Assembly (NCBI GenBank): GCA_028821575.1 | Contig: JAPPFW010000073.1 | Span: 11,434-75,433 of the forward strand | Reading direction: 5' to 3' | Origin: a bacterium | Lineage (GTDB): Bacteria; Actinomycetota; Acidimicrobiia; Spongiisociales; Spongiisociaceae | DNA: 64,000 nucleotides | Shown: positions 37,176 to 64,000 of the stretch, in pieces | Position numbering within the stretch: position 1 is the stretch's first letter | Layout: every line of letters starts with the position of its first letter | Program-made: the position numbers and the translations under genes | Notes under the pieces: model-generated | Told to the model about the DNA's origin: nothing | Database searches by the model: none | Seen by the model: the letters and a program-made list of their open reading frames with translations, nothing else

Positions 37176-37198
37176 CGATACGGTACCGTTCCGCATCG
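37176..37198. promoter_or_regulatory. 23-bp imperfect palindrome CGATACGGTAC-C-GTTCCGCATCG (putative operator shared by divergent proVWX-2 and fhs)
   Basis: Exact copy of 31025-31047, with flanks also conserved (about 33 nt). Lies about 127 nt from the proV2 start and about 61 nt from the fhs start. Confidence 0.6.
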
Positions 37199-37258
37199 TA
37201 GTACACAGCGGGTTAGCATGGTCCTTTGAAAGTACCTAGAAGCTCTCGCGGAGTTGCT

Positions 37259-39028: not shown

Positions 39029-39437
39029 CGCGTCCGCCCTAGCCCCAGGTGAATCGGTCGTATCGATCCGGTATCTGGTGGTCGACTGCATCGACCTCGA
39101 TCGGTCCGCCGGGTTCTGGGGTCCGCTGCTCGGCTTGGCGCCCGAGCGGCGGCTCGACAACTACCTGTTCATGGGCTCGGCGCTTCCGGGGTGCGAGTTG
39201 GTCCTGCAGCGCGTGGACCGGGTGACGGCGGACAAGAGCCCCATCCACTTCGATGTCCAGGGGTCCAATACGGAGGATTTCGACAAGATCGTGGCCCGAG
39301 CGGAGCGGCTCGGTGGCAAAATCGTGGCAACGGTTACCGAGGACGAGTACGAATTGGCTGTCATGGCCGATCCCGACGGCAACGAGTTCTGCGTGAACCG
39401 GGTGCCGTCGGGCCTTCCCGTCGACCGGGATGCGTAG
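39012..39437 (+). CDS. VOC/glyoxalase-family protein
   Basis: About 140 aa. IRYLVVDCIDLDRSAGFWGPLLGL...ADPDGNEFCV is a typical glyoxalase/bleomycin-resistance fold signature. The start is uncertain: TTG at 39012 overlaps the fhs end, and there is no in-frame ATG. Confidence 0.6.
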   Translation: MSGCSDASALAPGESVVSIRYLVVDCIDLDRSAGFWGPLLGLAPERRLDNYLFMGSALPGCELVLQRVDRVTADKSPIHFDVQGSNTEDFDKIVARAERLGGKIVATVTEDEYELAVMADPDGNEFCVNRVPSGLPVDRDA

Positions 39438-39484
39438 TCGACGGAGTACAAACGCTCACGAGAGCGAGGAAAGGAGGTGATCGA

Positions 39485-41368: not shown

Positions 41369-41406
41369 TGGTCTGGTAGTAGGAGGACCTCATCGACCTG
41401 CGTCTG

Positions 41407-49875: not shown

Positions 49876-52328
49876 CTGCGGGGCCTCACCGAGTCCGGGT
49901 CCCATACGGGACCGTCCAGGACCTTCGCCGGGGCGAGCCTGCCCAGCACCATCACCTCGAGGCAGGTTCCCGGAACGTCGAGTCCGGGATCCACGTACGC
50001 CCACGCAAGGCTGCGGCCCGTGGCGTGTCCGTAGCCGGTCGTGGTCACCACCCCTACTCTTCTGCCGTCCATGAAGACACCTTCCCCGCCGAGTGGATCC
50101 ACATCCGTAACATCCACGTCCAGTAAAGCTAGCTTCCATCGGGGCCTGCACATGCTGGCAACGAGGGCCTCGTAGCCGATGTAGCCCTTCTTGACCGGAT
50201 CGACGAACCTCATCAAACCGGCCTCGTACGCGCTCACCTCCTGGGTCATGTCTCCGGAGACCCGGTATGCCTTCTCCATCCGCATGGAGTTGAGAGCGAG
50301 CGATCCGAATACCCCCAGTCCGAGCGTTGCGCCCGAGTCGGCGACAGCATCGAACACGGTGGGCAGGTCCTCCATCGGCATGTGGAGTTCCCAACCGAGT
50401 TCCCCGGTGAAGGACAGGCGCAGAGCGAGGGCCCGCGCTGTGGCGATGTCGACCGATCGCGCCGACAGCCATCCTCCGCCGGTGTTAGACAGGTCGGCGC
50501 CGGTGAGCGGTTGGAGCACTTCCCGGCTCCTTGGTCCTGCCACCGCCAGTACGCCCAGATCGGACGAGCGATTGGCGATCCTCACCCTTTCCGGGCCCTC
50601 CGGGCCGGCATCCCGGCCCTCCCGGCCGTCGAGAACGTGGGAACGCATCCAATCGAGGAACCGTACTTCCCCGACCGCGGCGCCCACCAGGTAGAAGCGA
50701 TCCTCCGCCAGGCGGGTGGCGGTGAACTCGGCCTCCACCATCCCCTGCTCGGTGAGCATGTAGACGAGGCCGATCCGACCCGGTTGAGGCAGGCGGCCCG
50801 GTGTGAGGCGGTCGAGGAATGAGGCGGCATCGGCGCCTGTCACCTCGAACTTGGAGAAGGCGGTCAGGTCGGCCACTCCGGCCCGTTGCCGCACCGCCCT
50901 GACCTCTCCGGCCACGGCGGCGAACCAGCGAGCTCTGCGGAACGAGTGGTGATGTCGAGCGGCTTCCCCGTAGGTGGCGAACCAGCGGGGTCGCTCCCAC
51001 CCGAAGACCTCCTCGAACACCGCACCGCGCCGAGCCATCCGGTGATGGAGGGTCGAAGTCTTGTGAGGGCGCCCGGCGGGACGGTCCAGGTCGGGAAACG
51101 GGACCTCGTGCCGCAGCAGGTAGTCCTCGTGGGCCTTGGTCCGGTTGTAGTCGGGTGTTGCGAACTCGCCGAACCGGGAAGGATCGAAGGCGCGCAAGTT
51201 GAGGGTGGGGGCGCCCCGCACCATCCAGATGGCGAGCTGTCGCGTGGCGCCCGGACCCCAGGAGATGCCGACCTGGCTTCCGGTGCAGTACCAGTAGTTG
51301 GCGAGGCCGGGCGCCGGGCCGAGCAGCATGTTGCCGTCGGGGGGATGGGTGATCGCCCCGTGGATCTCCTTGACGATGCCGGCGTCTGCCAGTACCGGGA
51401 CCCGCTCGAAGGCCGCTTCTAGCCACGGCGCCACCCGGTCGTACTCGGGGGCGAACAGGTGATGGTCTGCATCCCAAGGAGTGCCGTTCTCCCACACCGA
51501 GCGCGGATCCGCCTTCTCGTAGATGCCGATGAGACCCGCCCGCCTCTCCATCCGGATGTATCCCGACACGTGGGTGTCCTCGCGCAGCACGGGGAGTTCC
51601 CTGTCCAGGTCGGCGAAGGCCGGAACCTCCTCCGTCACGAAGTACTGGTGGGTCATGGGAATGATCGGCAGGTCCACGGAGGGTCCGGCCCAAGCAGCCA
51701 CCTGGCGGGCGTACGTGCCGGCGGCGTTGACCACCCGGTCACAGACGTACGATCCCGCCTCGGTCTCCACCCTCCAACGACCGTCGGGCAAGGCGACCGT
51801 TCCGGTGACCCTGGTGTTGCGCCTGATGGTGGCCCCTCTCATGCGGGCGCCTTCCGCGAAGGCGAATACCGCCCCGGCCGGATCCACATGACCGTCGTCC
51901 GGCGTGTGGAGGGCGCCGAGCACACCATCGAGGTTGCACAAGGGATGGAGTTCAGCGATCCGCTCGGGATCGACCGATTCCATGCGGTTTCCCACCCCGC
52001 GGCCCACCGAAACCGTGTAGTTCAGCCAGTCCATCTCGTCCTCCCGGACGGCCAGGCGCAACGAACCGGGCTGGTGCCAGCTCACCGACCGGCCGGTCTC
52101 CGCTTCCAGCTCTGCGTACTTGCGGGTTCCGTATCCGGTCATCCACGCCAGGCCGTAGCTCGAGGTCGAATGGGTTATCTGGCCGGCGGCGTGCCAAGTC
52201 GATCCCGAGGCCAGTTCTCCCTTCTCCAGTAGCAGGCAGTCGTTCCAGCCCTCGGCTGCCAGGTGGTACAGGAGCGAGACCCCCATGATTCCCCCTCCGA
52301 TGATGACCACCCGGGCGTCAGGGGTCAT
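49872..52328 (-). CDS. dimethylglycine/sarcosine dehydrogenase-family flavoenzyme with GcvT-like domain, paralog 2
   Basis: 818 aa. VVIIGGGIMG, SGSTWHAAG, C-terminal LSFTGELGWELH. First gene of a four-gene overlapping operon. Confidence 0.85.
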   Translation of the reverse strand: MTPDARVVIIGGGIMGVSLLYHLAAEGWNDCLLLEKGELASGSTWHAAGQITHSTSSYGLAWMTGYGTRKYAELEAETGRSVSWHQPGSLRLAVREDEMDWLNYTVSVGRGVGNRMESVDPERIAELHPLCNLDGVLGALHTPDDGHVDPAGAVFAFAEGARMRGATIRRNTRVTGTVALPDGRWRVETEAGSYVCDRVVNAAGTYARQVAAWAGPSVDLPIIPMTHQYFVTEEVPAFADLDRELPVLREDTHVSGYIRMERRAGLIGIYEKADPRSVWENGTPWDADHHLFAPEYDRVAPWLEAAFERVPVLADAGIVKEIHGAITHPPDGNMLLGPAPGLANYWYCTGSQVGISWGPGATRQLAIWMVRGAPTLNLRAFDPSRFGEFATPDYNRTKAHEDYLLRHEVPFPDLDRPAGRPHKTSTLHHRMARRGAVFEEVFGWERPRWFATYGEAARHHHSFRRARWFAAVAGEVRAVRQRAGVADLTAFSKFEVTGADAASFLDRLTPGRLPQPGRIGLVYMLTEQGMVEAEFTATRLAEDRFYLVGAAVGEVRFLDWMRSHVLDGREGRDAGPEGPERVRIANRSSDLGVLAVAGPRSREVLQPLTGADLSNTGGGWLSARSVDIATARALALRLSFTGELGWELHMPMEDLPTVFDAVADSGATLGLGVFGSLALNSMRMEKAYRVSGDMTQEVSAYEAGLMRFVDPVKKGYIGYEALVASMCRPRWKLALLDVDVTDVDPLGGEGVFMDGRRVGVVTTTGYGHATGRSLAWAYVDPGLDVPGTCLEVMVLGRLAPAKVLDGPVWDPDSVRPRR

Positions 52329-52390
52329 GCCTGGTCCGTATGCCGGGAACGCGGCCGGCGACAGGTTGCGTGGGACCGGAAGGGCGGTCT

Positions 52391-52434
52391 GGTACGCTTG
52401 TACGGATAATCATGATGAATCGTACAACTGTACC
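52391..52434. promoter_or_regulatory. 44-bp palindromic element in the dmgdh2/rpiR divergent region (putative operator)
   Basis: GGTACGCTTGTACG (52391-52404) and CGTACAACTGTACC (52421-52434) match at 12 of 14 as inverted repeats. The inner 7 bp are perfect (TTGTACG/CGTACAA). They flank an AT-rich core GATAATCATGATGAAT. Confidence 0.5.
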
Positions 52435-53326
52435 AAACCCTGACTCCGGTCTCGACATGCTCCTGGAGCACATGAGTTCGGTGATCGGCGGTATGGCCCC
52501 GCAGGTCCGAAAGGCGACCGCGTTCGTGCTCGACAACCCTGAAGAGGTCGGGTTCGCCACCGTGCGGGAGCTGGCTGGGTTGGCGGGCGTGCACCCCAAC
52601 ACCATGGTCCGCATGGCCCGGGTGGTGGGCTTCGAGGGCTTCGAGGACTTTCGCGAACGGTTCCGCACCGAGATGCGGAACCGAAGCTCGTTCCACGACC
52701 GGGCCGTGTCGCTGCAGCTGATCTCGTCGGGTGAGCGGCTTCCCGCCCTCTACGGGGAGATAGCGACGGTCACGCTCCACAATCTGGAACGTATGTTCGG
52801 CACTACCTCCGCCGCGGAGATGCAGGCGATCGCCGATCACATCGTGTGTTCGCGGCGTACCTACGTCATCGGGGTCGGCGCCAACTACGCGCTGGCTCAC
52901 AACTTCGCCTATCTGGCCGGTATGGCCGTGGACAACGTGGTGGCGGTACCCGGCGACGGGAACGTGCCGATGGACGGTGTCGTGAAGGCCGGGTCCGCCG
53001 ACGTGGTGGTGGCCATGACCTTCGCCCCCTACCGGGCGGAGGTCGTGGAGGCAACCGGCGCCGCTCGCCGGCAGGGAGCCCGGGTGGTGGGCATCACCGA
53101 CAGTCACGGCTCACCCCTCGCGCTCGACGCGGACCATCTGATCCTCGCCCCGAGCGCCACCCCGCAGTTCTTCCCCTCCACGCTGGCGGCGGCCGCTGCG
53201 CTCGAGACGCTGGTCTCGTTCATCGTGGCCGACGCCCCTCCGGAGGTGGTAGCCGCCATCGACCTCATGCACCAACGTAGATACGATCTCGGTGTGTACT
53301 GGAAACCAGAACGTGGAAACCACTGA
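52412..53326 (+). CDS. RpiR/MurR-family transcriptional regulator (HTH_6 plus SIS domain)
   Basis: ...VRKATAFVLDNPEEVGFATVRELAGLAGVHPNTMVRMARVVGFEGFEDF is an RpiR-type HTH, followed by a SIS-like region (YVIGVGANYALA). The start is ambiguous: 52412, 52415 or 52457 (MLLEH..., which best matches the E. coli RpiR N-terminus from memory). The tracked start at 52340 is unlikely. Confidence 0.75.
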   Translation: MMNRTTVPNPDSGLDMLLEHMSSVIGGMAPQVRKATAFVLDNPEEVGFATVRELAGLAGVHPNTMVRMARVVGFEGFEDFRERFRTEMRNRSSFHDRAVSLQLISSGERLPALYGEIATVTLHNLERMFGTTSAAEMQAIADHIVCSRRTYVIGVGANYALAHNFAYLAGMAVDNVVAVPGDGNVPMDGVVKAGSADVVVAMTFAPYRAEVVEATGAARRQGARVVGITDSHGSPLALDADHLILAPSATPQFFPSTLAAAAALETLVSFIVADAPPEVVAAIDLMHQRRYDLGVYWKPERGNH

Positions 53327-54416
53327 CTGCTCCGCCTACACCCGACCCCAGCGGGTCATGGATCCGCACGTCTACCTCGATGCGGATCTGTTCGCCCGCG
53401 AGCAGCGAAGCGTCCTCTCGGCCACCTGGCAGTACGCCTGCCACAGGTCGGATCTCGGACGGCCGGGAAGCTATGTCACGTTCGAGATAGCCGGGGAGTC
53501 GCTCTTCACGGTCAGGGACCGGCGAGGGACGATCCGCACGTTCTACAACGTCTGCATGCATCGCGGCCACCGTCTGCTCGAAGGCCGGGGCGCCCGCCCT
53601 AAGCTGGTCTGTCCCTACCATTCCTGGACCTACCGCTTGGACGGGCGCCTCGACCATGCACCGTACGCGGAGGGGCGGCCCGGATTCGAGCCTGGTGGGA
53701 TATGCCTCACCGAGGTTCCGACGGAGGATCTGTGGGGTTTCCTGTTCGTGAACCTCGACTGCGACGCGGCCTCGATGGATGTGGCCTATCCCGGCGTTCG
53801 GGGGTCGCTCCGTGAGTTCCTCCCTTCAATCGAACGGATGCGACCGCTCGAACGTCGGTGGTTCACTGCCGAGTCGAACTGGAAGGTAGCGATCGAGAAC
53901 TACAACGAGTGCTACCACTGCCGAACCGCTCATCCGTCTTTCTCCAGGGGAGTGGTGCTACCGGACACCTATACGATCCGGCCGGTCGGCCGATCCCTGC
54001 AGCACCGGGCCGAGAGTTCTCCCGAGCAGTACTACGAGATCGACCACCAAGCCTCCCCGCACGCCGCCGACTACCGGTCCTTCTACCTGTGGCCGCTGTT
54101 CTCGTTCCAGATCTATCCCGGGCCGGTGTTGAACACCTTCTGCTGGCGGCCCGAGACGGTGGACCGGACTGTATTCTTCCGCGAGTGGTTCAGCGTCGAC
54201 GGGGAAGACTCGCCGACCGTTCGCCGTGTGGCTGAGGAGGACGCCCGCACCACGGTGGCAGAGGATCTGGCCCTGATGCGTTCGGTGCAGGGGGGTCTTT
54301 CGAGCCGGGGCTACCGTCCGGGCCCCCTGGTCATCGACCCCGACATGGGCCTCAACAGCGAGCACACCGTGGCCGCGATCAAGGCCTGGTACCAGGACGC
54401 GATGGGGGACGTCTAG
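53292..54416 (+). CDS. Rieske [2Fe-2S] non-heme-iron oxygenase alpha subunit (candidate N- or O-demethylase)
   Basis: Rieske motif CMHRGH...CPYHSW. Mononuclear-iron motif NECYHCRTAHP. Start is 53292 (overlaps the rpiR end) or the ATG at 53358. No cognate reductase or ferredoxin gene is adjacent. Confidence 0.8.
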   Translation: MCTGNQNVETTDCSAYTRPQRVMDPHVYLDADLFAREQRSVLSATWQYACHRSDLGRPGSYVTFEIAGESLFTVRDRRGTIRTFYNVCMHRGHRLLEGRGARPKLVCPYHSWTYRLDGRLDHAPYAEGRPGFEPGGICLTEVPTEDLWGFLFVNLDCDAASMDVAYPGVRGSLREFLPSIERMRPLERRWFTAESNWKVAIENYNECYHCRTAHPSFSRGVVLPDTYTIRPVGRSLQHRAESSPEQYYEIDHQASPHAADYRSFYLWPLFSFQIYPGPVLNTFCWRPETVDRTVFFREWFSVDGEDSPTVRRVAEEDARTTVAEDLALMRSVQGGLSSRGYRPGPLVIDPDMGLNSEHTVAAIKAWYQDAMGDV

Positions 54417-54417
54417 G

Positions 54418-54471
54418 GGTCAGTGGTCAGTTGTCAGCGTAATCCAATGGCCACAAGCCACAAGCCACAAG
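54418..54471. repeat. intergenic heptad repeats: GGTCAGTGGTCAGTTGTCAG (reverse complement of CTGACAA-CTGACCA-CTGACC) followed by CCACAAG x3
   Basis: 54418-54433 is the exact reverse complement of 45548-45563. 54451-54471 is ccacaag ccacaag ccacaag. Located between the convergent Rieske and etfA stops. Confidence 0.7.
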
Positions 54472-54474
54472 CCC

Positions 54475-55470
54475 CTAGCCCCTCTCCCTCGCCAGGCCGC
54501 GGCGGCGGGTTATCTCGGCGGAGATCGCCGGCACCACTTCGTGGAGGTCGGCGATGACCGCCCAGTCGGCCTTCGTCACCATCGGGGCGTCGGGGTCGAT
54601 GTTGATGGCGAGGATGTTCTTGGCACTCATCATCCCTACCCAGTGCTGGATGGCTCCGGAGATGCCGCAGGCGATGTAGAGGTCAGGTGCAACCACCGTT
54701 CCCGTCTGGCCCACCTGGAACTTGTGGTTCTTCCAACCGTTGTTGGTCACCACCCGCGAGCAGCCCACCGCGCCCCCGAGCAGGTCCGCCAGTTCCTCGA
54801 TGATGGCGAAGCCCTCGACACTTCCCACCCCGCGCCCGCCGCTGACCACCACCGGCGCGGTAGCGAGTGTGATTCCCTCCGAGACGGTCACCCGGTCCTT
54901 GACCATCGTGACCGCAGCAGAGTCGTCCAGCACCGGAACGAACTCCGCCACGTGCCCGGCGCCCCGGTCGGCGGCACGGGCCGCCTCGGTGCTGTGCGGG
55001 GCGAGCGTCACCAGCTTGGTGTGCGCCGCGAGCCGGGCCCGTTCGTGGAGGCTGCCTCCCCAGCGCACCCGGGTCATCAGCCAGTCATCCCCTTCGGACT
55101 CGATCTCCAGGCAGTTGGCGACCATTGCCAGATCCATCCTCGCTCCCACATGGGCCATGACCTCGTTGCCCCGGTCGGTCCCGGTTGCCACAACGGCCGT
55201 GGCACCAACCGAGCCGGCCAACTGCGCCAGGCTGTCGGCCCAAGCGTCGGGCCCGTAGTCGGTGAGCAACCCGTGGCGGACGAGATGGATCGCTTCGGCC
55301 CCGTAGGCAGCGAGTCCTCCCGCCGATCGGTCCGCTCCCTCCCCGATCACCGCGGTGTGGAGCTGTGCTCCCATGGTCTCGGCCAGGTGCCTGGCCCCGG
55401 TGAGGCCGCCCATCGTCGTCTCCTCGATCAGGCCACGGTCGTGCTCGACCAGGTACAGGAAGACGCTCAT
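54475..55470 (-). CDS. etfA: electron transfer flavoprotein alpha subunit
   Basis: 331 aa. C-terminal FAD-binding signature PDLYIACGISGAIQHWVGM. ATGA overlap with etfB. Confidence 0.9.
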   Translation of the reverse strand: MSVFLYLVEHDRGLIEETTMGGLTGARHLAETMGAQLHTAVIGEGADRSAGGLAAYGAEAIHLVRHGLLTDYGPDAWADSLAQLAGSVGATAVVATGTDRGNEVMAHVGARMDLAMVANCLEIESEGDDWLMTRVRWGGSLHERARLAAHTKLVTLAPHSTEAARAADRGAGHVAEFVPVLDDSAAVTMVKDRVTVSEGITLATAPVVVSGGRGVGSVEGFAIIEELADLLGGAVGCSRVVTNNGWKNHKFQVGQTGTVVAPDLYIACGISGAIQHWVGMMSAKNILAINIDPDAPMVTKADWAVIADLHEVVPAISAEITRRRGLARERG

Positions 55471-56234
55471 ACGAGACCTAACTCCTCCAGGATGTCGACG
55501 ATGGCCGGCGCTGCCTCCGCGCCCTCGCCAAGGATGTCGACCGTCGTCCCGACCGCCGGGGGCGTTGCCAGCACCACCTTCGACTGCCCGCTCGTGCCCG
55601 GGGTCGGCTCGATCCTCGACACCGGGGCCCGTCGAGCGGCCATCCGTCCTCTCAGCGTCGGGTACCGAGGCAGGTTGATGCCCTCCCTGACCCCCACCAC
55701 AGCCGGCAGCGGGAGTTGGTAGACCTCCGAGCCGGAAGCCGTCTCCCGGCGAGCGATGATCCGGTCGCCCGCGGTGTCTATCCCCTTGATGCCGCTGACC
55801 ATGGGCCGGCCCAGGGCCCGGGCCGCCCGGATCCCCACCTGGTAGCCACCCGAGTCGGCCGACTCGTTACCGAACAGGATCAGATCGTATGGTTCCCCCT
55901 GGTCGGACTCCGACTCGCGAATGGCGGCCACCAGGGCTTCGGAAGTCGAGACCGGCTCCCAGTCGGGGATGACGGTCGGTAGCAACACCGCCGAGTGGGC
56001 ACCCACCGCGATGGCCGAACGAAGCTGTTCCTCGGCTTCCGGCGGACCTAGGGTCATCACGGTCACGGATCCGCCCTCTCGCTCCACAATCTGCACCGCC
56101 TCTTCGACCGCGCACTCCTCGTGGGGGCTCACGGTGAACCCCAGCAATGAGGCGTCGATGTCCTGGCCGTCGGCGGTTAGGACGATCTTGGCCCCCGGCG
56201 CGGGGACCCTCTTGACGCAAACGAGGATCCGCAT
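55467..56234 (-). CDS. etfB: electron transfer flavoprotein beta subunit
   Basis: 255 aa. MRILVCVKRVP... N-terminus typical of EtfB. Confidence 0.9.
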   Translation of the reverse strand: MRILVCVKRVPAPGAKIVLTADGQDIDASLLGFTVSPHEECAVEEAVQIVEREGGSVTVMTLGPPEAEEQLRSAIAVGAHSAVLLPTVIPDWEPVSTSEALVAAIRESESDQGEPYDLILFGNESADSGGYQVGIRAARALGRPMVSGIKGIDTAGDRIIARRETASGSEVYQLPLPAVVGVREGINLPRYPTLRGRMAARRAPVSRIEPTPGTSGQSKVVLATPPAVGTTVDILGEGAEAAPAIVDILEELGLV

Positions 56235-56254
56235 CGTCTAGCGCGCCGCGCCCA

Positions 56255-58765
56255 TCAGCGCTTCATCCGGCTGTCGTCCGGATCGAAGAGCGGTTTCGAT
56301 CCGACTCGGGCCACCTTCACCGGGAACAGCTCGTTCTGATACATGATCCGGAGTTCGCTGCCTTCCTCCGCCATATCCGCGGGGAGGTACCCGAGCAGGA
56401 TGTAGGTGTCCAGGGATGGCGCCGCGCCCGCCGAGGTGACCCGGGACACGCGGCCCTTCGAGTCCACGATCCGATCTCCGTCCACGGTGAGGATCGGCTC
56501 GTTGCCGCCCATCGGGAACCGGGCTATGCCTGAGGTGGACACATGGCTCTCCATCGTCAGGGTGCAACAGACAGCCGCGGGGCCCGCTTCCCGCGCGGCC
56601 AGGTAGGCCTCCTTGCCGATGAAGTCGGCGGACTTGACCCTGGGCCGGGCCAGTCCGGCCTCGACCGGGTTGTACTCCGACTCCAGTTCGGCGCCCATGA
56701 GCCGGTAGCCCTTCTCCAACCGGGCCGTGGTTCCGTAGACGCCGGCTCCGACCGGGAGGACCCCGAACTCCCGGCCTGCCTCCCAGAGGGCCTTCCACAG
56801 CATGGGGGCGTGCTCCATGCCGGTGTATATCTCCCAACCGAGGTCGCCCACATAGGAGATCCGGAACATGGTCACGGGTGTCGAGTCGATGGTGGCGTGC
56901 TTGAAGGTTCCGTACGGAAATCCTTCGTGAGAGATGTCGTCGGAGGTGACCTTGCGGACCAGGCTTCGAGCGGAGGGACCCCATACCCCGATGGTGGACA
57001 ACGAGGAGGTCATGTCGGTGAACACCACGGATCCGTCCTCGGGGAGCCACTTGCGGAACCAGTAGGCGTCCCGGCCGCCGTCGAAGCCCCCGGTGACGAC
57101 GCGGAAGTGGTCCTCGCCCATGCGCAGGACCGTCAGGTCGGAACGGAAGCCGCCCTCCTCGGTCAGGAGGGGGGTGTAAACACCTCGCCCTGGCCGGTAG
57201 TCGAGTTGGTTCACCGTCATACGCTGCATGTAGTCGAGGGCGCCGGGTCCGCTGACGTCGAAGATGGCGAACGCGCTCAGGTCGATCATTCCCACCCGGT
57301 CCCGGAGGGCCAGGTGCTCGGCATTCTGGATTGGTGACCACCAACGGGAGTCCCACTCGTGGGGACGGTCGGGAATCCGATCGGCGTACTCCTCGAGGAG
57401 GGGGGCGTTCGACTCGTACCAGTGGGGCCGTTCCCATCCGCCCGCCTCGAAGTACACTGCCCCGAGTGCCGACGTGGTGCTGTGCAGGGTGCTGACGCGG
57501 CTGTCGCGCCGGCTGTCCCACTGCTCCCGCGGGTGGACGATGCCGTAGGTCTTGTTGAAGTGCTCCGCGCAGCGGGAGAGGATGTGGCTCTCTGTCTTCA
57601 TGTAGGGGTAGAACCGGGCGATATCGGAGGCATGAGGGTCGATCTCCGGGTATCCCTGGGTCATCCACTCGGCCAGCGCTCGTCCCGTGCCCGGTCCTTC
57701 CTTGATCCAGATCGCCGCGCACGACCACAGGTTCCTGACCTCCGGGGTCTCACCCACCAGGGGCATCGCGTCGGGAGTGAGCGAGAGCAGCCCGTTGATC
57801 CCGTACTTGATCTCGGCGTCTCCGAGGAAGGGCATGAGCTCCAAGGCCTCTTCGAGCTGGGGATCGAAGTCGTCCATGGTTAGAGGAAGCTCGGTGGGCG
57901 ACAGGCGGGCCTCATCGATCGAGGGGATGGTGTCCGGGTGATGGAAGATCGGCCGGTGGGCGTATGAACCGACCTCCATGGACCCGCCCGTCTGGCGCTC
58001 GTAGCAGAAAGTGTCCATGTCCCGGACTATCGGGTAGCCGATCTCGCTGTTGGTGGCGGACAGGATCTCGAGGGGTCCCACATCGATCATCTGGTGAACG
58101 GCGGGGGTTAAAGGGATGGAGGCGCCCGCCATCCGTGCCAGGCGGGGCGACCAGACGCCACAGGCGATCACCACGTACTCGCAGGCGATCCTTCCCTTGT
58201 CCGTGACCACCGCATCGATACGTCCCCGCTTCGTCTCGATGTCCAGGACCTCGGTCAGCGGGTGAACCGACAGGGCGCCCTTGGACTGCGCGTACTCGCG
58301 CATGAGGGTTCCTGCCCGCAGGGAGTCGACCACCGAGACGCCGGGCGTGTACCAGCCGCCCAGTATCACCGACTCGTCGAGGTAGGGGACCAGCTCCGTC
58401 GCTTCGGCGGGGCTCACGAGCCAACTGTCGATGCCCCAGCACTTGGCGGAGGTCATCCGGCGGCTGAGTTCGTGGAGCCGCTCAGCGGTCCGCGCTACCT
58501 CGATCCCGCCCGAGGTGACGCTGACCTCCATCTCCTCGTACTGTTCCTGGCTGTCGAGAGTGAGGTGGGCCATCTCCTTGTTGTGGTCGACCGGAAAGAT
58601 GAAGTTCGAGGCGTGGCCGGTCGATCCACCCGGGTTGGGCAGAGGTCCCTTGTCCAACTGGACGATGTCTCGCCACCCGAGAGCGGCGAGGTGCTTGACT
58701 ACTGAATTACCGACGATGCCTGCGCCGATCACTACGACCCGGGCGCTGGTTGGCAGGTCGCTCAT
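56255..58765 (-). CDS. dimethylglycine/sarcosine dehydrogenase or oxidase-family flavoenzyme with GcvT-like domain, paralog 3 (divergent)
   Basis: 836 aa. VVVIGAGIVG FAD fold, GGSTGHASNF in place of the STWHAAG motif of paralogs 1 and 2, and C-terminal ISYVGDLGWEIY. Heads the dmgdh3-etfB-etfA operon. Confidence 0.85.
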   Translation of the reverse strand: MSDLPTSARVVVIGAGIVGNSVVKHLAALGWRDIVQLDKGPLPNPGGSTGHASNFIFPVDHNKEMAHLTLDSQEQYEEMEVSVTSGGIEVARTAERLHELSRRMTSAKCWGIDSWLVSPAEATELVPYLDESVILGGWYTPGVSVVDSLRAGTLMREYAQSKGALSVHPLTEVLDIETKRGRIDAVVTDKGRIACEYVVIACGVWSPRLARMAGASIPLTPAVHQMIDVGPLEILSATNSEIGYPIVRDMDTFCYERQTGGSMEVGSYAHRPIFHHPDTIPSIDEARLSPTELPLTMDDFDPQLEEALELMPFLGDAEIKYGINGLLSLTPDAMPLVGETPEVRNLWSCAAIWIKEGPGTGRALAEWMTQGYPEIDPHASDIARFYPYMKTESHILSRCAEHFNKTYGIVHPREQWDSRRDSRVSTLHSTTSALGAVYFEAGGWERPHWYESNAPLLEEYADRIPDRPHEWDSRWWSPIQNAEHLALRDRVGMIDLSAFAIFDVSGPGALDYMQRMTVNQLDYRPGRGVYTPLLTEEGGFRSDLTVLRMGEDHFRVVTGGFDGGRDAYWFRKWLPEDGSVVFTDMTSSLSTIGVWGPSARSLVRKVTSDDISHEGFPYGTFKHATIDSTPVTMFRISYVGDLGWEIYTGMEHAPMLWKALWEAGREFGVLPVGAGVYGTTARLEKGYRLMGAELESEYNPVEAGLARPRVKSADFIGKEAYLAAREAGPAAVCCTLTMESHVSTSGIARFPMGGNEPILTVDGDRIVDSKGRVSRVTSAGAAPSLDTYILLGYLPADMAEEGSELRIMYQNELFPVKVARVGSKPLFDPDDSRMKR

Positions 58766-58789
58766 CCCCGGCTCCTGTTCCTACCCCAT

Positions 58790-58832
58790 GTTCCGCATCG
58801 CGGAACCTTCTTACGATACGGAACAGCATACC
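58790..58832. promoter_or_regulatory. cluster of GTTCCGCATCG-type half-sites (dmgdh3-proximal side of the divergent promoter)
   Basis: Perfect palindrome GTTCCGC-ATC-GCGGAAC (58790-58806). CGATACGGAAC (58814-58824). GGAACAGCATACC (58820-58832) is the exact inverted partner of 58944-58956. Confidence 0.55.
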
Positions 58833-58943
58833 TAGCGATCGGCGGGATTTCATCGGCTGCCGGGAGGTTTGGTGCGGGATGCGAGACCATGGGGAGGAGT
58901 CGGACACAAAACCGTTATTCTGTAGCCTGTCGACGGCGGTTGA

Positions 58944-58980
58944 GGTATGCTGTTCCACGATGTAGGACTGTTCCGCATCA
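58944..58980. promoter_or_regulatory. cluster of GTTCC(G/A)C(A/G)ATC half-sites (corrinoid-operon-proximal side)
   Basis: GGTATGCTGTTCC (58944-58956), GTTCCACGATG (58952-58962) and GTTCCGCATCA (58970-58980). About 55 nt upstream of the corrinoid-protein ATG. Confidence 0.55.
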
Positions 58981-59034
58981 TGAGACACAAACATCAGGCT
59001 TCCCGCTGGCGGGGGAAGGGTTCTATCTGCTCTC

Positions 59035-59742
59035 ATGGACATGTTCGACGACGAACTCGACCTCCGAACGCTTCCCGACGATGAACTCGTCGAGCAGATG
59101 CACGACGATCTGTATGACGGCCTGGCCGAGGAAATCGACGAGGGCACGCGCATCCTGCTGGAGAGGGGGTGGAGCGCTTCAGATGTCCTGAACGACGCCC
59201 TGGTGGAGGGTATGCGGATCGTCGGTATCGACTTCCGCGACGGCATCCTCTTCGTTCCCGAGGTCCTCCTGGCCGCCAACGCGATGAAGGCGGGCATGGC
59301 TGTTCTCCGGCCCCTCCTGGCCGAGACAGGCGCCGAGACCGTCGGGAAGGTGGTCATCGGTACCGTCAAGGGGGACATTCACGACATCGGCAAGAACCTC
59401 GTGGCGATGATGATGGAGGGGGCCGGTTTCGAGGTCGTCGATCTGGGGATCAACACCGATGTGGACGAGTTCCTGGAAGCCATCGAGTTGTACCAACCGG
59501 ACATTCTCGGGATGTCCGCCCTGCTCACAACCACGATGCCCTACATGAAGGTGGTGGTCGACACCCTCGTTGCCAAAGGGTTGCGGGATCGCTACATCGT
59601 CATGGTGGGCGGCGCGCCCCTCAATGAGGAGTTCGGGCGGGCGGTAGGCGCCGATGCCTACTGCCGGGACGCCGCGGTTGCTGCCGAGACCGCCAAGGAC
59701 CTGGTCATGAAGCAGCGCATCCTCATGAGCGAGCATGTCTGA
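59035..59742 (+). CDS. cobalamin-binding corrinoid protein (MtbC/MttC/MtgC-like)
   Basis: 235 aa. N-terminal helical cap, then a B12-binding Rossmann domain with the His-on ligand motif GDIHDIGKN (DxHxxG) and ...GMSALLTTT. Confidence 0.85.
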   Translation: MDMFDDELDLRTLPDDELVEQMHDDLYDGLAEEIDEGTRILLERGWSASDVLNDALVEGMRIVGIDFRDGILFVPEVLLAANAMKAGMAVLRPLLAETGAETVGKVVIGTVKGDIHDIGKNLVAMMMEGAGFEVVDLGINTDVDEFLEAIELYQPDILGMSALLTTTMPYMKVVVDTLVAKGLRDRYIVMVGGAPLNEEFGRAVGADAYCRDAAVAAETAKDLVMKQRILMSEHV

Positions 59743-60352
59743 GCAGAGGGATGGGATGCCTCGCCTGCTCGTCCTGGCGTGTGGGGCGCTGGCGTCGGAG
59801 ATCCGGCACATAGTCCGGATCAACGGCTTGAGCCACATCACCCTTATGTGCCTGCCCGCCCGCTTCCACAACACACCGGAACGTATCGTTCCCGAACTCG
59901 AGACCCGGCTCGAGCGTTTGGCGCCCATGTACGAGAGGATCCTCATCGGGTACGCCGACTGCGGTACCGGGGGCCGGCTTGATTCGCTGGTCGACCGCTG
60001 GGAGAACGTCGAGCGCCTCCCCGGGGCCCACTGCTACGAGTTCTTCGCGACCTCGCCCAGGTTCATGGAACTCCACGAGGCGGAGCTGGGGACCTTCTAC
60101 CTGACCGACTTCCTGACCCGGCATTTCGACCGCCTGGTCTGGGATACTCTCGGGCTGTCCCGTCACCCCCAGCTGCGCGACATGTACTTCGGTAACTATC
60201 GCAAGCTCGTCTACCTATCGCAGTTCGACGATCCGGAACTCTACGAGATGGCCGAGGAGGCAGCTGACCGCCTAGGCCTCGAGTTCCATCATCATCCGGT
60301 CGGTCTGGGAGATCTCGGCACGAGCTTGGAGAGATTCGCGGCGGCGGGTTGA
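59735..60352 (+). CDS. DUF1638-like protein (recurrent, uncharacterised partner of corrinoid methyltransferase operons)
   Basis: 205 aa. LLVLACGALASEI...IGYADCGTGG pattern as recalled for DUF1638. 8-nt overlap with the corrinoid protein gene. Confidence 0.55.
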   Translation: MSEQRDGMPRLLVLACGALASEIRHIVRINGLSHITLMCLPARFHNTPERIVPELETRLERLAPMYERILIGYADCGTGGRLDSLVDRWENVERLPGAHCYEFFATSPRFMELHEAELGTFYLTDFLTRHFDRLVWDTLGLSRHPQLRDMYFGNYRKLVYLSQFDDPELYEMAEEAADRLGLEFHHHPVGLGDLGTSLERFAAAG

Positions 60353-60397
60353 TCCGCTCATGCCTGGCGAACGGTCATCGACAGATCCTCGCGGCTC

Positions 60398-60784
60398 ATG
60401 ACCGGGCGACGTACCAGCGCGCGCAACCAGAGAGCGCGCTCGGAGTTGATCACGATCCTTTGGCGTGACATACCTGCGCAGGTCACAGCGCGATCGGGAA
60501 GGAACAAGATGGCGGTCGAGTTACCGGGACGGTTCCAGACCGCTATTGACCGAGCGGCGATGGTGGCGGGTTGCCACACCTATAGCGACTACATCGAGGA
60601 GTGGCGCCGGACCGCCACGCCTTGCAGCCAGGACGTGGAGGCAGAGGCGAAGGCGGCAGCCGCCCGAATCGAGCAGGACTTTCCCAACGAGAGATTGTTT
60701 CGCATTGCCGCAAACGGGGGATTCGACGAATCCGCGATGTTCCCGGAGACCATGCGGCACGGGAGCAAGGACGGCGAGCCGTGA
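60398..60784 (+). CDS. small 'virulence factor'-domain-like protein of unknown function
   Basis: About 100-128 aa. The core LITILWRDIPAQVTAR...LPGRFQTAIDRAAM resembles, from memory, the Pfam Virulence_fact-type proteins that accompany MttB/corrinoid clusters in alphaproteobacteria. Start uncertain. GTGA overlap with the next gene. Confidence 0.5.
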   Translation: MTGRRTSARNQRARSELITILWRDIPAQVTARSGRNKMAVELPGRFQTAIDRAAMVAGCHTYSDYIEEWRRTATPCSQDVEAEAKAAAARIEQDFPNERLFRIAANGGFDESAMFPETMRHGSKDGEP

Positions 60785-61689
60785 CGCGCACCGTCGTCAG
60801 TTCGGCAACCAGGGAGGTGGTCATCGGTCCGGATCGCCCCTTCGTGGTCATCGGGGAACGGATCAACCCGACCGGCCGCAAGCTGTTGGCGGCCGAGATG
60901 CGCGAGGGTGACTACCACCGTGTAGAGGCGGACGCCCTAGCCCAGGTGGCGGCCGGCGCCCACATGCTGGACGTGAATGCCGGTATACCGCTGGCCGACG
61001 AGCCGGCCATCCTGGCCGAGGCCATCCGACTGGTCCAATCCCTCGTGGATGTTCCCCTGGCCATCGATTCGTCGATCGTCGAGGCGTTGGAAGCAGGTCT
61101 GGCCGTGTACGAGGGCAAGGCTCTGGTCAACTCGGTCACGGGCGAGGAGGAACGTCTGGAGCGAGTCCTCCCGCTGGTGGCCAGATACGGCGCGGCCGTG
61201 GTGGCTATCTCCAACGACGAATCCGGCATCTCCGAGGACCCCGACGTCAGGTTCGAAGTCGCCGCCAAGATCGTGCGACGGGCAGCCGACCACGGGATAC
61301 CGGCAAGCGACGTGGTGGTCGATCCCCTGGTGATGCCGGTGGGCGCGATGCGCTTTGCGGGGGCTCAGGTCTTCCACATCCTGCGCCGGTTGCGCGAGGA
61401 ACTCGGGGTCAACTCCACCTGTGGCGCCTCGAACATCAGCTTCGGTCTGCCGAACCGTCACGGGATCAACAGCGCCTTCCTTGCCATGGCGATCTCGAAC
61501 GGCCTCACCTCGGCCATAACGAACCCGCTCGAGCGGGAGATCGTTACCGCGATCAAGGCTGCCGACGTGCTGACCGGTAATGACCGCGATTGTGTCGCCT
61601 GGATCAGGACATTCCGTGAAACGGGAGCGGCAGCCGGCGGCCGTGGTCGGCGCCGCGGCCGCAGGCGACGGGCTGTCAGAGCCGGGTAG
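60781..61689 (+). CDS. methyltetrahydrofolate:corrinoid methyltransferase (pterin-binding, MetH/AcsE/MtgA-like)
   Basis: 302 aa from the GTG at 60781. VIGERINPTGRK, LDVNAG, ALVNSV and VVDPLV motifs of the pterin-binding (DHPS-like TIM barrel) domain. The tracked start at 60601 overlaps the previous gene. Confidence 0.8.
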   Translation: MTRTVVSSATREVVIGPDRPFVVIGERINPTGRKLLAAEMREGDYHRVEADALAQVAAGAHMLDVNAGIPLADEPAILAEAIRLVQSLVDVPLAIDSSIVEALEAGLAVYEGKALVNSVTGEEERLERVLPLVARYGAAVVAISNDESGISEDPDVRFEVAAKIVRRAADHGIPASDVVVDPLVMPVGAMRFAGAQVFHILRRLREELGVNSTCGASNISFGLPNRHGINSAFLAMAISNGLTSAITNPLEREIVTAIKAADVLTGNDRDCVAWIRTFRETGAAAGGRGRRRGRRRRAVRAG

Positions 61690-61699
61690 GAGTCGATCC

Positions 61700-63724
61700 A
61701 TGGCCGCTTGCCCGGTTCAGGTCATCTTCACCCCCTCCGGTAGGAGGGGAACGGTCGAGGCGGGGACAACCGTCCTCGAGGCTGCGCGGCACCTGGGTGT
61801 CGACATCGACTCGGTGTGCGGCGGGAGGGGCTTGTGCGGTCGCTGCCAGGTGACGCTCGGCTCGTCGGTGAGCATTCCGGGCACAGAGGATCGCCTGTCG
61901 GCCCGGGATGCCGTCGAACTGGGTTTCCGGAACCGGCGCCGTCCCCTGCGTGAAGGTCATCGGCTCTCGTGCGCCGCCCGCCTGCGGGCCGACGCCGTAA
62001 TCGATGTCCCGCCATACAGCCAGGTGCGAAAGCAGGTGGTCCGGAAACGCGCCGAGGTGGTGGACATCCCGGTAGACCCCGTCGTGCGCCTCCACTACCT
62101 CGAGGTCGAGCCTCCCGACATGCACCGCCAAGCCTCGGATCTGGCGCGGGTGCTGCGGGCCCTGGAAGCCCAGTGGGGCATCATCGGGGTGGAGGTCGAC
62201 CACCACGTTCTGGTGGAACTACAGGACGCGCTGCGGGCCGGTGATTGGACGATCACCCTCGCGGTGCACGATGGAGCGGTAGTCACCGGAGTCTGGCCCG
62301 GTTTCCATGACGGGCCGGCGGGTGTGGCGATCGATGTGGGATCGACGACGGTGGCGGGCCATCTCTGCGATCTTTCGACGGGCTCGATCCTTGCATCAAC
62401 CGGGATGATGAATCCCCAGATCCGTTTCGGCGAAGACCTCATGAGCCGTGTCTCCTACGTGATGATGAACGACGGAGGCGAACAGGAGTTGACGGGAGCC
62501 ATCCGCGCCGCCCTGGACCAGTTGGTCGGCGAACTGGTGCAGGCGGCCGGGCTGGAACGGAGCGCAGTGCTGGAGGTGGCGCTGGTCGGCAACCCGATCA
62601 TGCACCACCTGGTTCTCGGAATCGATCCGCGCAGGCTGGGGGTGGCGCCCTTCGCCCTGGCCACCGACGGACCGGTCAGGACACCGGTCTCCACGATCGG
62701 AGTCCGGGCTCACCCGGGTGCCCGGCTGTACGTCCTGCCCTGCGTCGCGGGTCACGTCGGCGCCGACGCGGCCGGCGCGGTGCTGTCGGAGGGCCCTCAC
62801 CGCGGGCAGGACATCCAGTTGCTGGTCGACGTGGGCACCAATGCCGAGATCGTCCTGGGAAGCGCCGGACGCCTGCTCGCCGCCTCTAGTCCCACCGGTC
62901 CTGCCTTCGAGGGTGCCGAGATCAGTTCCGGTCAGCGAGCCACCCCGGGCGCTATCGAGAGGGTCCGGATCGATCGAACCACACTGGAGCCGCGCTTCAA
63001 GGTGATCGGAGCCACGATGTGGTCGGACGAGGAAGGTTTCGAAGAGGCGACGGTCGGCACCGGGGTCATCGGCATCTGCGGCTCCGGGATCATCGAAGCG
63101 GTCGCGGAGCTTGCCCTCGCAGGCGTGGTGTCATCGGACGGGCTCATCGTCGACTCGGGGCGCACGGGCCGGGTCACGACGGAAGGCCGGTCTGCCACGT
63201 TCCTGCTCCATGACGGGTCGTCCTCGGGTGCGGCCCGCATCGCGATAACCCAGAACGACGTCAGATCCATCCAGCTTGCCAAGGCCGCCCTGTACGCGGG
63301 CATCCGCTTGCTCATGGACCACCTGGGAGTGGATAGGGTGGATGAGATCAGGCTGGCGGGTGCATTCGGCAGCCACATCGATCCGGTCTACGCCATGGTC
63401 CTGGGCATGATTCCCGACTGCGACCTGGACCGTGTCTCGGCCGCGGGCAATGCTGCCGGTACCGGCGCCACGATGGCCCTGCTCAGCGGCGCCGCGCGGG
63501 GTGAGATAGAGGGCCTCGTGCGGAAGGTGGAGAAGATCGAGACCGCGGTGGCCCCGGGCTTCCAGCAGCACTTCGTGGAGGCGATGGCCATTCCCCATGC
63601 CACGGCGGCCTTCGAGCAACTGGCCCGGCGGGTGGATCTGGCGGGTATCGCGTCGGTCGAGCCGACCGGCCATCGCCGGAGAGTCGGACGTAGGAACCGC
63701 AGGAGACGGGTAGGAAGGACATGA
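61700..63724 (+). CDS. corrinoid reductive activase (N-terminal [2Fe-2S] ferredoxin plus ASKHA/DUF4445 ATPase, RACo/RamA-like)
   Basis: 674 aa from the ATG at 61700 (GTAGGAG upstream). SVCGGRGLCGRCQV ferredoxin motif. ASKHA phosphate motifs AIDVGSTTV and LLVDVGTNAEIVLG. Confidence 0.8.
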   Translation: MAACPVQVIFTPSGRRGTVEAGTTVLEAARHLGVDIDSVCGGRGLCGRCQVTLGSSVSIPGTEDRLSARDAVELGFRNRRRPLREGHRLSCAARLRADAVIDVPPYSQVRKQVVRKRAEVVDIPVDPVVRLHYLEVEPPDMHRQASDLARVLRALEAQWGIIGVEVDHHVLVELQDALRAGDWTITLAVHDGAVVTGVWPGFHDGPAGVAIDVGSTTVAGHLCDLSTGSILASTGMMNPQIRFGEDLMSRVSYVMMNDGGEQELTGAIRAALDQLVGELVQAAGLERSAVLEVALVGNPIMHHLVLGIDPRRLGVAPFALATDGPVRTPVSTIGVRAHPGARLYVLPCVAGHVGADAAGAVLSEGPHRGQDIQLLVDVGTNAEIVLGSAGRLLAASSPTGPAFEGAEISSGQRATPGAIERVRIDRTTLEPRFKVIGATMWSDEEGFEEATVGTGVIGICGSGIIEAVAELALAGVVSSDGLIVDSGRTGRVTTEGRSATFLLHDGSSSGAARIAITQNDVRSIQLAKAALYAGIRLLMDHLGVDRVDEIRLAGAFGSHIDPVYAMVLGMIPDCDLDRVSAAGNAAGTGATMALLSGAARGEIEGLVRKVEKIETAVAPGFQQHFVEAMAIPHATAAFEQLARRVDLAGIASVEPTGHRRRVGRRNRRRRVGRT

Positions 63725-64000
63725 ACATGCGAACGCGGCGAAGACGGAGAACCGGGGGGCGGGCAGCACGCCAGGCCATGCGGACAGCCCGGGTCATCGA
63801 TCAGCAACCGTTCCTCACCCGCGCCCTCGGCCGCACCGAGGTGCTCTCCCAAGAGGGCATGGAGCTCATCGAGCACAATGCCGACACGCTCCTCGAGGAG
63901 GTGGGAATCGAGATGATGAACTTCCCCGAGGCTCTCTCGATCTACGCGGACGCGGGTGCCGACGTCAACGGTACGCGGGTCCGGTTCCCTAGGGGAATGT
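63721..64000 (+). CDS. second MttB-superfamily methyltransferase, N-terminal 93 codons only (runs off the window)
   Basis: Own translation: MNMRTRRRRRTGGRAARQAMRTARVIDQQPFLTRALGRTEVLSQEGMELIEHNADTLLEEVGIEMMNFPEALSIYADAGADVNGTRVRFPRG. This is the typical Arg-rich MttB-family N-terminus. ATGA overlap with the activase stop. Not in the ORF track because no stop is reached. Confidence 0.7.
   Translation, partial: MNMRTRRRRRTGGRAARQAMRTARVIDQQPFLTRALGRTEVLSQEGMELIEHNADTLLEEVGIEMMNFPEALSIYADAGADVNGTRVRFPRGM

Follow-up and report, generated by a model that had tools for sequence, protein, structure and literature searches.

The window analysed here, a stretch of 64,000 nucleotides of contig JAPPFW010000073.1, carries at positions 59035-64000 an operon which, with a probability of about 0.7, is the Acidimicrobiia version of the aerobic, cobalamin-dependent glycine betaine demethylation system of the MtgBCD type. 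The order of the operon is mtgC, DUF1638, PF13769, mtgD, the RACo gene, mtgB (MttB2) and metF2. The mechanism is not new, having been reported from aerobic marine bacteria in 2025; the host phylum is. The host is a sponge-associated member of the Acidimicrobiia, a sponge symbiont of the Candidatus Spongiisociaceae, a family which taxonomy places in the class Acidimicrobiia of the phylum Actinomycetota. Genes and families were assigned from sequence, and the chemistry was deduced from the families.

Six co-directional, partly overlapping genes were identified on the + strand of the region by open reading frame (ORF) listing and translation. The first, mtgC (59035-59742), encodes a corrinoid (cobalamin-binding) protein of 235 aa featuring PF02607 and PF02310 domains. 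It is followed by genes encoding a DUF1638 protein (59735-60352, 205 aa, PF07796) and a PF13769 ('Virulence_fact') protein (60398-60784, 128 aa), by mtgD (60781-61689, GTG start), which encodes a methyl-tetrahydrofolate (methyl-THF):corrinoid methyltransferase of the MeTr/AcsE type (302 aa, PF00809 and PRK07535), and by the gene of a RACo-type ATP-dependent reductive activase (61700-63724, 674 aa, PF00111, PF17650, PF17651 and PF14574). The first 93 codons of the 514-aa gene of the mtgB-like MttB2 (PF06253) run from 63721 to the window end at 64000. Overlaps measure 8, 4 and 4 bp (59735/59742, 60781/60784 and 63721/63724), the other gaps 45 and 10 nt. Shine-Dalgarno-like sequences precede the starts of the activase and MttB2 genes; in the former a GGAG is found 8 nt before the ATG at 61700, and an alternative GTG start is located at 61616. 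Pfam matches of all six proteins far exceed the curated cut-offs. The same genes, positions, domains and overlaps had been reported in the first-pass annotation of this DNA, with which ORF listing and Pfam agree, and its corrinoid, pterin, activase, DUF1638, PF13769 and MTTB assignments were all borne out by profile scores above cut-offs. It had also proposed that every part needed to move a methyl group from a quaternary amine to THF is encoded here. All parts were identified, and by the families present the operon is complete for the transfer from quaternary amine to methyl-Co(III) to methyl-THF.

The end of the MttB2 gene was obtained from contig JAPPIO010000111.1 (locus L001), a contig of a metagenome-assembled genome (MAG) deposited at NCBI, reached by exact look-up of the DUF1638 protein. 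L001 is 99.965% identical to window positions 49735-64000 (14,266 bp) and extends past the window end. In L001 (13987-15531) MttB2 is an uninterrupted ORF of 512-514 aa, with no in-frame stop and no amber codon, and the amber check suggested in the first-pass annotation is thereby settled by a 514-aa ORF. A 287-aa MTHFR gene (metF2) follows directly, and is in turn followed by a PabB/PabC-like fusion (chorismate-binding plus aminotransferase-IV, folate precursor synthesis) at L001:16467-18218, just past the window end. The fusion is syntenic in Spongiisociaceae-type loci.

MttB2 was placed by pairwise scores to solved structures and by its binding-site residues. The match to Pfam MTTB (PF06253) reaches 73 bits on the 93 residues inside the window, and the protein scores 256 bits against TIGR02369 (cut-off 525). 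The S. meliloti MttB (4YYC) gives 654 bits and 59% identity, the biochemically characterised D. hafniense MtgB (2QNE and 9YCE) 379 bits and 41%, and the pyrrolysine (Pyl) enzyme Pyl-MttB (7XCL) 110 bits and 25%; the last two comparisons set MttB2 at a distance from the trimethylamine methyltransferases, as the first-pass annotation had supposed. The pyrrolysine position is occupied in MttB2 by Leu (CTN codon), and the UAG typical of Pyl-MttB is absent. The Methanosarcina Pyl MttB/MttC/RamA system (7XCL, 7XCN) and the window system belong to the same PF06253 fold family and both feature a corrinoid carrier and an ATP-dependent activase. They differ in sequence (25% identity, Leu for pyrrolysine, no UAG), in the predicted methyl acceptor, which is THF in the window system and coenzyme M in Methanosarcina, and in the activase, the window protein being a RACo-type enzyme whose N-terminal part is a 2Fe-2S domain.

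In MtgB, glycine betaine is bound by Y97, R312, H348 and F356, as defined by mutagenesis and a ligand-bound structure (Picking et al. 2026, PMC13080624), and the aromatic pair separates MtgB from MtcB, MtpB, MthB and MtyB (PMC13080624). Numbering was fixed by locating the four residues in the 9YCE sequence. Y97, R312 and H348 are kept in MttB2, in 4YYC and in 14 orthologues from three phyla, and all of these feature an invariant Trp at the I352 position, in the motif HxAGWLEGG. The MtgB/MtgC/MtgA system of the strict anaerobe D. hafniense (PMC13080624) shares with the window system the three residues, the two-domain type of corrinoid protein and THF as the final methyl acceptor; the THF methyltransferase in the window is MeTr/AcsE-like (PF00809). 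Orthology, the state of the binding residues, conserved gene order and a promoter motif in common with related operons make glycine betaine the most probable substrate of MttB2, which would convert it to dimethylglycine. The opinion expressed in the first-pass annotation, that the substrate cannot be read from the sequence, was in this respect too cautious, as the sequence gives a useful, though not conclusive, indication of it.

Synteny and promoter motif link the operon to a divergent unit on the - strand (54475-58765; Pfam DAO, FAO_M, GCV_T, GCV_T_C, ETF and ETF_alpha), made by the genes of a DMGDH-family flavoenzyme (56255-58765), ETF beta (55467-56234) and ETF alpha (54475-55470). The conserved DMGDH and ETF neighbours fit dimethylglycine as the product of MttB2, and this enzyme pair probably oxidises the dimethylglycine produced. 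The intergenic region between the DMGDH-type gene and mtgC (58766-59034) hosts three exact copies of the operator-like motif GTTCCG(C/T)ATC, at 58790-58799 (+), 58815-58824 (-) and 58970-58979 (+). The window contains 10 copies of the motif versus 1.7 expected, an about six-fold excess, and none of 100 shuffles reached 10. Palindromic pairs of the motif are found upstream of both ATPase genes of the betaine-type (OpuA-type) ABC operons and of the formate-THF ligase (FTHFS) gene. Sites outside the mtgC promoter lie at 31024-31050 and 37176-37200, and at two sites the motif forms the palindrome CGATACGGTACCGTTCCGCATCG. In many related MAG loci, the corresponding intergenic region has retained GTTCCG(C/T)ATC. 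The presence of one motif in all these promoters points to a single regulon including the mtgC/DMGDH promoter, both ABC operons and FTHFS. Genes of the RpiR, IclR and MarR regulator families reside in the window. An Rfam scan of the whole window revealed no cobalamin, THF or glycine riboswitch.

A homologous system is at work in aerobic bacteria. Knock-outs of mtgC and mtgD in aerobic Ruegeria pomeroyi neither grow on nor consume glycine betaine (Mausz et al. 2025, PNAS, PMC12478193), and in the same bacterium proteomics found MtgB, RamA, DUF1638 and MetF2 induced on betaine, choline and carnitine (PMC12478193). The functions of the window genes match this set. The first-pass annotation had assumed that characterised non-Pyl MttB systems are found in strict anaerobes only; the premise is therefore out of date. 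Nor can the arrangement be called uncharacterised, since Mausz et al. report co-located mtg operons in SAR116, SAR324, SUP05 and S. meliloti, and in many aerobic marine bacteria (PMC12478193). Actinomycetota account for 5% of marine mtgC reads (PMC12478193).

Comparison with the described aerobic system was made through the S. meliloti locus, in which PF13769, metV, metF, mtgD, a hypothetical gene, and ASKHA, DUF1638 and cobalamin-binding protein genes are followed by a divergent MttB gene and bmt. Judged from their text description, this appears to be the mtgBCDE locus of Mausz et al. The S. meliloti MttB corresponds to PDB 4YYC (100% identity over 487 residues). Identity of the window proteins to their S. 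meliloti counterparts is 78% for MtgC, 64% for MtgD, 59% for MttB2, 54% for RACo, 51% for DUF1638 and 42% for PF13769. The R. pomeroyi, P. inhibens and S. meliloti systems feature the same protein families as the window system, the same association with demethylation of dimethylglycine and sarcosine and with THF-linked C1 oxidation, and no pyrrolysine. The differences concern the host, which is a member of the Actinomycetota (Acidimicrobiia) from a sponge in one case and Proteobacteria in the other; the layout, as the window genes make one operon and those of R. pomeroyi are scattered; MetF2, a single S6MTHFR-like protein in the window host, replaced by a MetV/MetF pair in S. meliloti and Azoarcus; and mtgE, absent nearby in the window locus. 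The one-operon layout is a convenient template for reconstitution.

Some observations weigh against the glycine betaine assignment or its aerobic setting. F356 is replaced by Gly in MttB2, in 4YYC and in all 14 orthologues, that is, in the whole clade. In this and in the clade-specific Trp nearby MttB2 differs from D. hafniense MtgB; the Trp, located four residues before the F356 position, may act as a stand-in. The MtgB assignment in R. pomeroyi is based on proteomics and homology, without knock-out or enzyme assay (PMC12478193). The host has not been cultured and is represented by MAGs only, and the window contains O2-dependent enzymes, but no respiratory chain. Finally, a Rieske oxygenase encoded nearby, a distant relative of GbcA, might demethylate the same betaine, or a different one, by another route.

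The change of F356 leaves room for a different methylated amine (proline betaine, carnitine, gamma-butyrobetaine, choline or phosphocholine) as substrate of the same machinery, a rather unlikely assignment. According to Picking et al. the four residues are a minimum set only, and specificity is decided by other determinants (PMC13080624). Y97 of the aromatic pair diagnostic of MtgB is nevertheless kept, and, 4YYC apart, MttB2 is clearly nearer to MtgB than to other solved members. MttB paralogues of differing specificity use one corrinoid protein in Eubacterium (PMC12478193), and an Aminobacter plasmid pairs an MttB gene, 43% identical, with neighbours of the proline betaine type; on the other hand, the neighbour of MttB2 conserved across phyla is a DMGDH-type enzyme with ETF, which fits dimethylglycine. 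The carnitine and choline genes in the window may be listed in favour of these other substrates, but are of the kind converging on glycine betaine.

The remaining proteins of the operon fit the glycine betaine demethylation system. MtgC is a stand-alone cobalamin-binding protein made by a cap and a Rossmann domain. It scores 63 bits against B12-binding_2 and 98 bits against B12-binding, features the DxHxxG motif as DIHDIG at residues 114-119 (59374-59391), and matches PDB 1Y80 with 206 bits. Its best NCBIfam match is MtgC_2 (212 bits, under the 370-bit cut-off of the model). MtgD scores 100 bits against Pterin_bind (PF00809), 362 bits against NCBIfam PRK07535 (methyl-THF:corrinoid methyltransferase, cut-off 259) and 152 bits against the MeTr structure 2YCK. 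In the activase, Fer2 (30 bits), RACo_linker (90 bits), Raco_middle (159 bits) and RACo_C_ter (291 bits) occur in the order typical of RACo-type proteins: the 2Fe-2S domain at the N-terminus, then the linker and the middle domain, and the ASKHA domain at the C-terminus. The plant-type 2Fe-2S motif C-x5-C-x2-C...C is formed by Cys40, Cys46, Cys49 and Cys91. NCBIfam models AcsV (368 bits) and RamA (105 bits) are both matched under their cut-offs. The RACo of Carboxydothermus hydrogenoformans (3ZYY) is matched over the full length (302 bits) and has the same order of Fer2, linker, middle and ASKHA domains. Its client is CoFeSP, that of the window activase would be a small corrinoid protein of the MtgC type, and the latter activase carries about 40 extra C-terminal residues with an Arg-rich end.

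MetF2 differs from canonical MetF proteins. It scores 56 bits against TIGR00676 (cut-off 294), and its best solved relative is 7XG9 (S6MTHFR, 113 bits), the canonical 1V93 and 3APT scoring 31 bits. S6MTHFR from Sphingobium lignivorans SYK-6 oxidises methyl-THF, barely binds NAD(H) and is a partner of THF-dependent demethylases (PMC11868366). The similarity fits a catabolic, methyl-THF-oxidising direction for MetF2, which would be coupled to a corrinoid system, while S6MTHFR is coupled to the O-demethylases LigM and DesA. Further along the same path, Pfam identified on the + strand (37226-44164) formate-THF ligase, a glyoxalase-like gene, and then formate-dehydrogenase-like Mo, Nuo51-like and Fe-S subunits. 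Formate-THF ligase and the formate-dehydrogenase-like set would finish C1 oxidation to CO2. MetF2 adjoins MttB2 in L001, and in the window the operon is co-located with DMGDH/ETF and C1 oxidation genes.

The oxidising type of MTHFR bears on a reversed use of the cassette, in which MtgD would move methyl groups from methyl-THF to Co, a separate homocysteine methyltransferase would complete a mainly anabolic, split methionine synthase, and MttB2 would be an accessory methyl source. MtgC, MtgD, the RamA-like protein and DUF1638 are indeed required for methionine prototrophy in both R. pomeroyi and P. inhibens. When the latter is grown aerobically, methionine synthesis depends on all of the corrinoid, pterin-binding, RamA-like DUF4445 and DUF1638 proteins (PMC5764234), MtgC and MtgD serve methionine synthesis also in R. 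pomeroyi (PMC12478193), and about 70% of marine MtgBCD genomes are without MetH (PMC12478193). This reading is quite improbable for the window operon, which includes an MttB gene next to the MTHFR gene and has its divergent promoter in common with DMGDH and ETF. No PF02574 (homocysteine methyltransferase) gene was found among the about 50 scanned window ORFs or the extension genes. According to Mausz et al., mtgE is as a rule encoded away from the cluster, in contrast to the catabolic genes (PMC12478193). A dual role, catabolic plus methionine synthesis, is compatible with the glycine betaine reading.

MttB2 is 97% identical in 'Candidatus Spongiisociaceae bacterium' and 70-94% identical in many Acidimicrobiia MAGs (one genome per species). 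The window proteins were compared by tblastn with 84 collected loci. About 30 Acidimicrobiia loci from species-level MAGs show all cassette genes in the same order, in most cases with DMGDH and ETF genes diverging from them; judging from MAG names, the MAGs appear to be of sponge, soil and sediment origin. The MttB2 orthologue of most Proteobacteria lies apart from the cassette, and gammaproteobacterial orthologues also adjoin DMGDH and ETF genes. Orthologues with 52-63% identity reside on Paracoccus, Sinorhizobium, Shinella, Mesorhizobium and Rhizobium replicons. A similar cassette, which includes genes for a corrinoid protein, DUF1638, a 'virulence factor', MetV, MetF, a pterin methyltransferase and an ASKHA protein, is located beside a glycine betaine ABC transporter in plasmid pAZKH of Azoarcus sp. 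KH32C. Megablast of positions 56000-64000 versus plasmids returned only short matches of 71-77% identity; the window is therefore not a known plasmid. These data extend the B12-dependent aerobic betaine route from marine Proteobacteria to Actinomycetota, and in Acidimicrobiia of sponges and, as MAG names suggest, of soil and sediment the route takes the form of a compact, vertically conserved operon. A literature search found no paper on MtgB for glycine betaine in sponges.

By Pfam and NCBIfam scans of about 50 ORFs, the window corresponds to a methylated-amine catabolic island holding three DMGDH-family enzymes and one ETF. The DMGDH-type enzyme with ETF, Rieske oxygenase, GMC choline dehydrogenase and acyl-CoA dehydrogenase named as neighbours in the first-pass annotation were all found by the scans, and the oxygen-respiring appearance of the region was confirmed to the extent that O2-dependent and ETF-linked enzymes are present. 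As no respiratory chain is found in the window, the aerobic lifestyle is only inferred, from window context and general knowledge of sponge Acidimicrobiia. The alpha subunit of the Rieske oxygenase (53292-54416, +) has no adjoining reductase gene, and adjoins an RpiR regulator gene (52340-53326). It was considered as a candidate GbcA (glycine betaine monooxygenase). GbcA is its best NCBIfam match, but the score is 139 bits versus a 670-bit cut-off, and the protein is therefore not a GbcA orthologue.

Sponge tissue can turn anoxic once pumping stops. The presence of a Rieske oxygenase in the same window as a carrier passing through oxygen-sensitive Co(I) could mean that the corrinoid system is used in hypoxic or anoxic tissue only, and an oxygenase route under oxic conditions. 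Such a division is improbable. The Rieske protein is too far from GbcA, as just seen, and both DMGDH with ETF and the C1 oxidation downstream depend on a respiratory acceptor. R. pomeroyi and P. inhibens use the homologous system during aerobic growth, and transcription of mtgC in the oxic surface ocean is high (PMC12478193).

Other genes of the island are of the kind expected to supply glycine betaine. Two tandem paralogous ABC operons of the OpuA type are located at 25999-37049 (-), with almost the same promoter elements in both. Each encodes an OpuAC binding protein, an ATPase that includes CBS domains and a permease whose ORF, at about 720 aa, is unusually long. A GMC choline dehydrogenase of the BetA type (5100-6737, -; 851 bits, above the NCBIfam cut-off), an L-carnitine dehydrogenase with a fused thioesterase (12297-13784, -; 429 bits, NCBIfam cut-off 414) and a BKACE-family enzyme (13845-14774, -) complete the set. 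The acyl-CoA dehydrogenase of the island is encoded at 11140-12300. Carnitine dehydrogenase and BKACE presumably make up a carnitine-to-betaine route, as known for these families. Together with BetA, they would funnel choline and carnitine into glycine betaine.

The glycine betaine demethylation system would thus operate as follows. Betaine would enter through the two OpuA-type ABC systems, or be made from choline by BetA or from carnitine by carnitine dehydrogenase and BKACE. MttB2 would take a single N-methyl group from glycine betaine and place it on the Co(I) of MtgC, yielding methyl-Co(III)-MtgC and dimethylglycine, and MtgD would hand the methyl group from MtgC to THF. The S6MTHFR-like MetF2 would oxidise methyl-THF to methylene-THF, feeding C1 oxidation via FTHFS and the formate-dehydrogenase-like genes, and the divergent DMGDH-family enzyme and ETF would oxidise dimethylglycine further. 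Co(II)-MtgC, expected to form often in an oxic cell, would be re-reduced by the 2Fe-2S/ASKHA activase at the cost of ATP, probably with the assistance of DUF1638 and PF13769. As in R. pomeroyi, MtgC and MtgD may have a second role in making methionine, in which their partner would be a homocysteine methyltransferase from another part of the genome. In sponge holobionts such a route would turn betaine, choline and carnitine of the host into sources of methyl groups, carbon and nitrogen, and create a demand for cobalamin.

The two small proteins of the operon had both been regarded as uncharacterised in the first-pass annotation. This stands for PF13769, as a literature search found no paper and no described role, and does not for DUF1638, as mutants in the corresponding gene of P. 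inhibens are methionine auxotrophs (Price et al. 2018, PMC5764234). The DUF1638 protein scores 98 bits against PF07796. The conservation of residues C16, C76, C100, H45, H99 and D75 extends to Azoarcus and S. meliloti and is suggestive of a metal site, and the protein is probably an accessory of corrinoid reactivation. The PF13769 protein scores 67 bits against the Pfam model, and alignment revealed an invariant WRDIPAQV motif. The AF2 models are confident, with pLDDT values of 86 (DUF1638) and 81.5 (PF13769). Fold searches of the PDB with the models of PF13769 and DUF1638 returned no significant match, with best E-values of 0.15 and 0.005, respectively, and TM-scores of 0.4 or less, and sequence searches of the PDB with the two proteins were empty or returned noise.

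PF13769 genes were found in 28 of 31 cassette loci spanning the DUF1638-to-mtgD junction, the three loci without being from Acidimicrobiaceae; a further copy of the same population (L002) stands beside this count. The gene is always located between DUF1638 and the folate-branch genes. A profile search retrieved 1,309 PF13769 members among 1.84 billion cluster representatives. Two types of fusion were detected in metagenomes. In one (P0400; loci L089 and L090) DUF1638 and PF13769 are joined in a protein of 344 aa, identical in two sequencing runs; in the other (P0418), found truncated on a single 977-bp contig, PF13769 is joined to Fer2 and RACo_linker. Fusions to DUF1638 and to RACo, though thin evidence, hint that PF13769 belongs with the reactivation module.

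Several proteins of the operon end, or start, with charged segments. Arg-rich 'RRR-GG-RR' tails mark the C-termini of MtgD (61624-61686, +) and RACo (63652-63721, +), and similar tails are found at the N-termini of MttB2 (63721-63800, +), of MttB1, a second MttB protein described below (19135-19197, -), and, in Acidimicrobiia, of PF13769 (60398-60442, +). The N-terminus of MtgC (59035-59125, +) is in contrast acidic. The sequence RRR occurs within the last 25 residues in 32/34 MtgD and 28/36 RACo orthologues, versus 0/22, 1/31 and 0/35 in controls; an RRR-GG-R-AR motif starts all 86 proteins of the MttB2 clade, and the acidic N-terminus is found in 35/35 MtgC orthologues, with Asp plus Glu making 37% of the first ~30 residues. 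The pattern spans the Acidimicrobiia and the Alpha-, Beta- and Gammaproteobacteria, while the solved homologues from anaerobes are without charged terminal segments. MttB, MtgD and RACo must take turns on the corrinoid protein. It is conceivable, though rather doubtful, that the Arg-rich tails of the three electrostatically tether them to acidic MtgC, as covalent linkers do in MetH, and that PF13769 is a further required subunit for reactivation. A precedent is found in MtaC, whose extra N-terminal domain stabilises the complex with MtaB. 'Arginine-rich' was not found in the top-matching MttB and corrinoid literature. PF13769, the Cys/His-rich DUF1638 and the charged tails are relevant to the question of how, in oxic cells, several partners share and repair a Co(I) carrier sensitive to oxygen.

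MttB1, the second full-length MttB paralogue of the window (17632-19197, -; 521 aa), is 26% identical to MttB2 and belongs to a separate clade, scoring 190 bits against 7XCL, 170 bits against MtgB and 135 bits against 4YYC. It has no corrinoid protein of its own, and carries the Arg-rich N-terminus. Met occupies the pyrrolysine position. All four glycine betaine residues are missing, even R312, which the characterised members acting on quaternary amines all have. Genes beside MttB1 are located at 19199-21616 and 21749-22687 (-). MttB1 follows a DMGDH-family gene, and orthologues in other Actinomycetota are flanked on both sides by DMGDH-family genes whose stops and starts overlap with theirs. 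An Rfam match to PYLIS_3 (pyrrolysine insertion sequence, mttB) in MttB1 (18048-18147, -; 64 bits, gathering score 38) was evaluated as a sign of pyrrolysine decoding and rejected. Its first codon is precisely the one that aligns with pyrrolysine, yet this reads ATG; base pairs are few and several are non-canonical, and MttB2 scores 37 bits at the equivalent site. For these reasons the match is attributed to coding-sequence homology.

Two minor observations concern mtgC and its relatives. A GC-rich hairpin, CTTCCC-N8-GGGAAG, is located at 58999-59018, 17 nt upstream of the mtgC start, and its 3' arm overlaps the sole Shine-Dalgarno-like sequence before the gene; the hairpin may mask the ribosome-binding site, or be a bidirectional terminator. 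In plasmid pAA02 (204547-212737) of the aerobe Aminobacter aminovorans the MttB-family gene 43% identical to MttB2 is associated with a corrinoid protein about 75% identical to MtgC, and with an ABC substrate-binding protein, a mandelate-racemase-family enzyme, an FAD oxidoreductase and a P5C-reductase-like protein. By its gene content, this cluster looks like a version of the MttB scheme for proline or hydroxyproline betaine.

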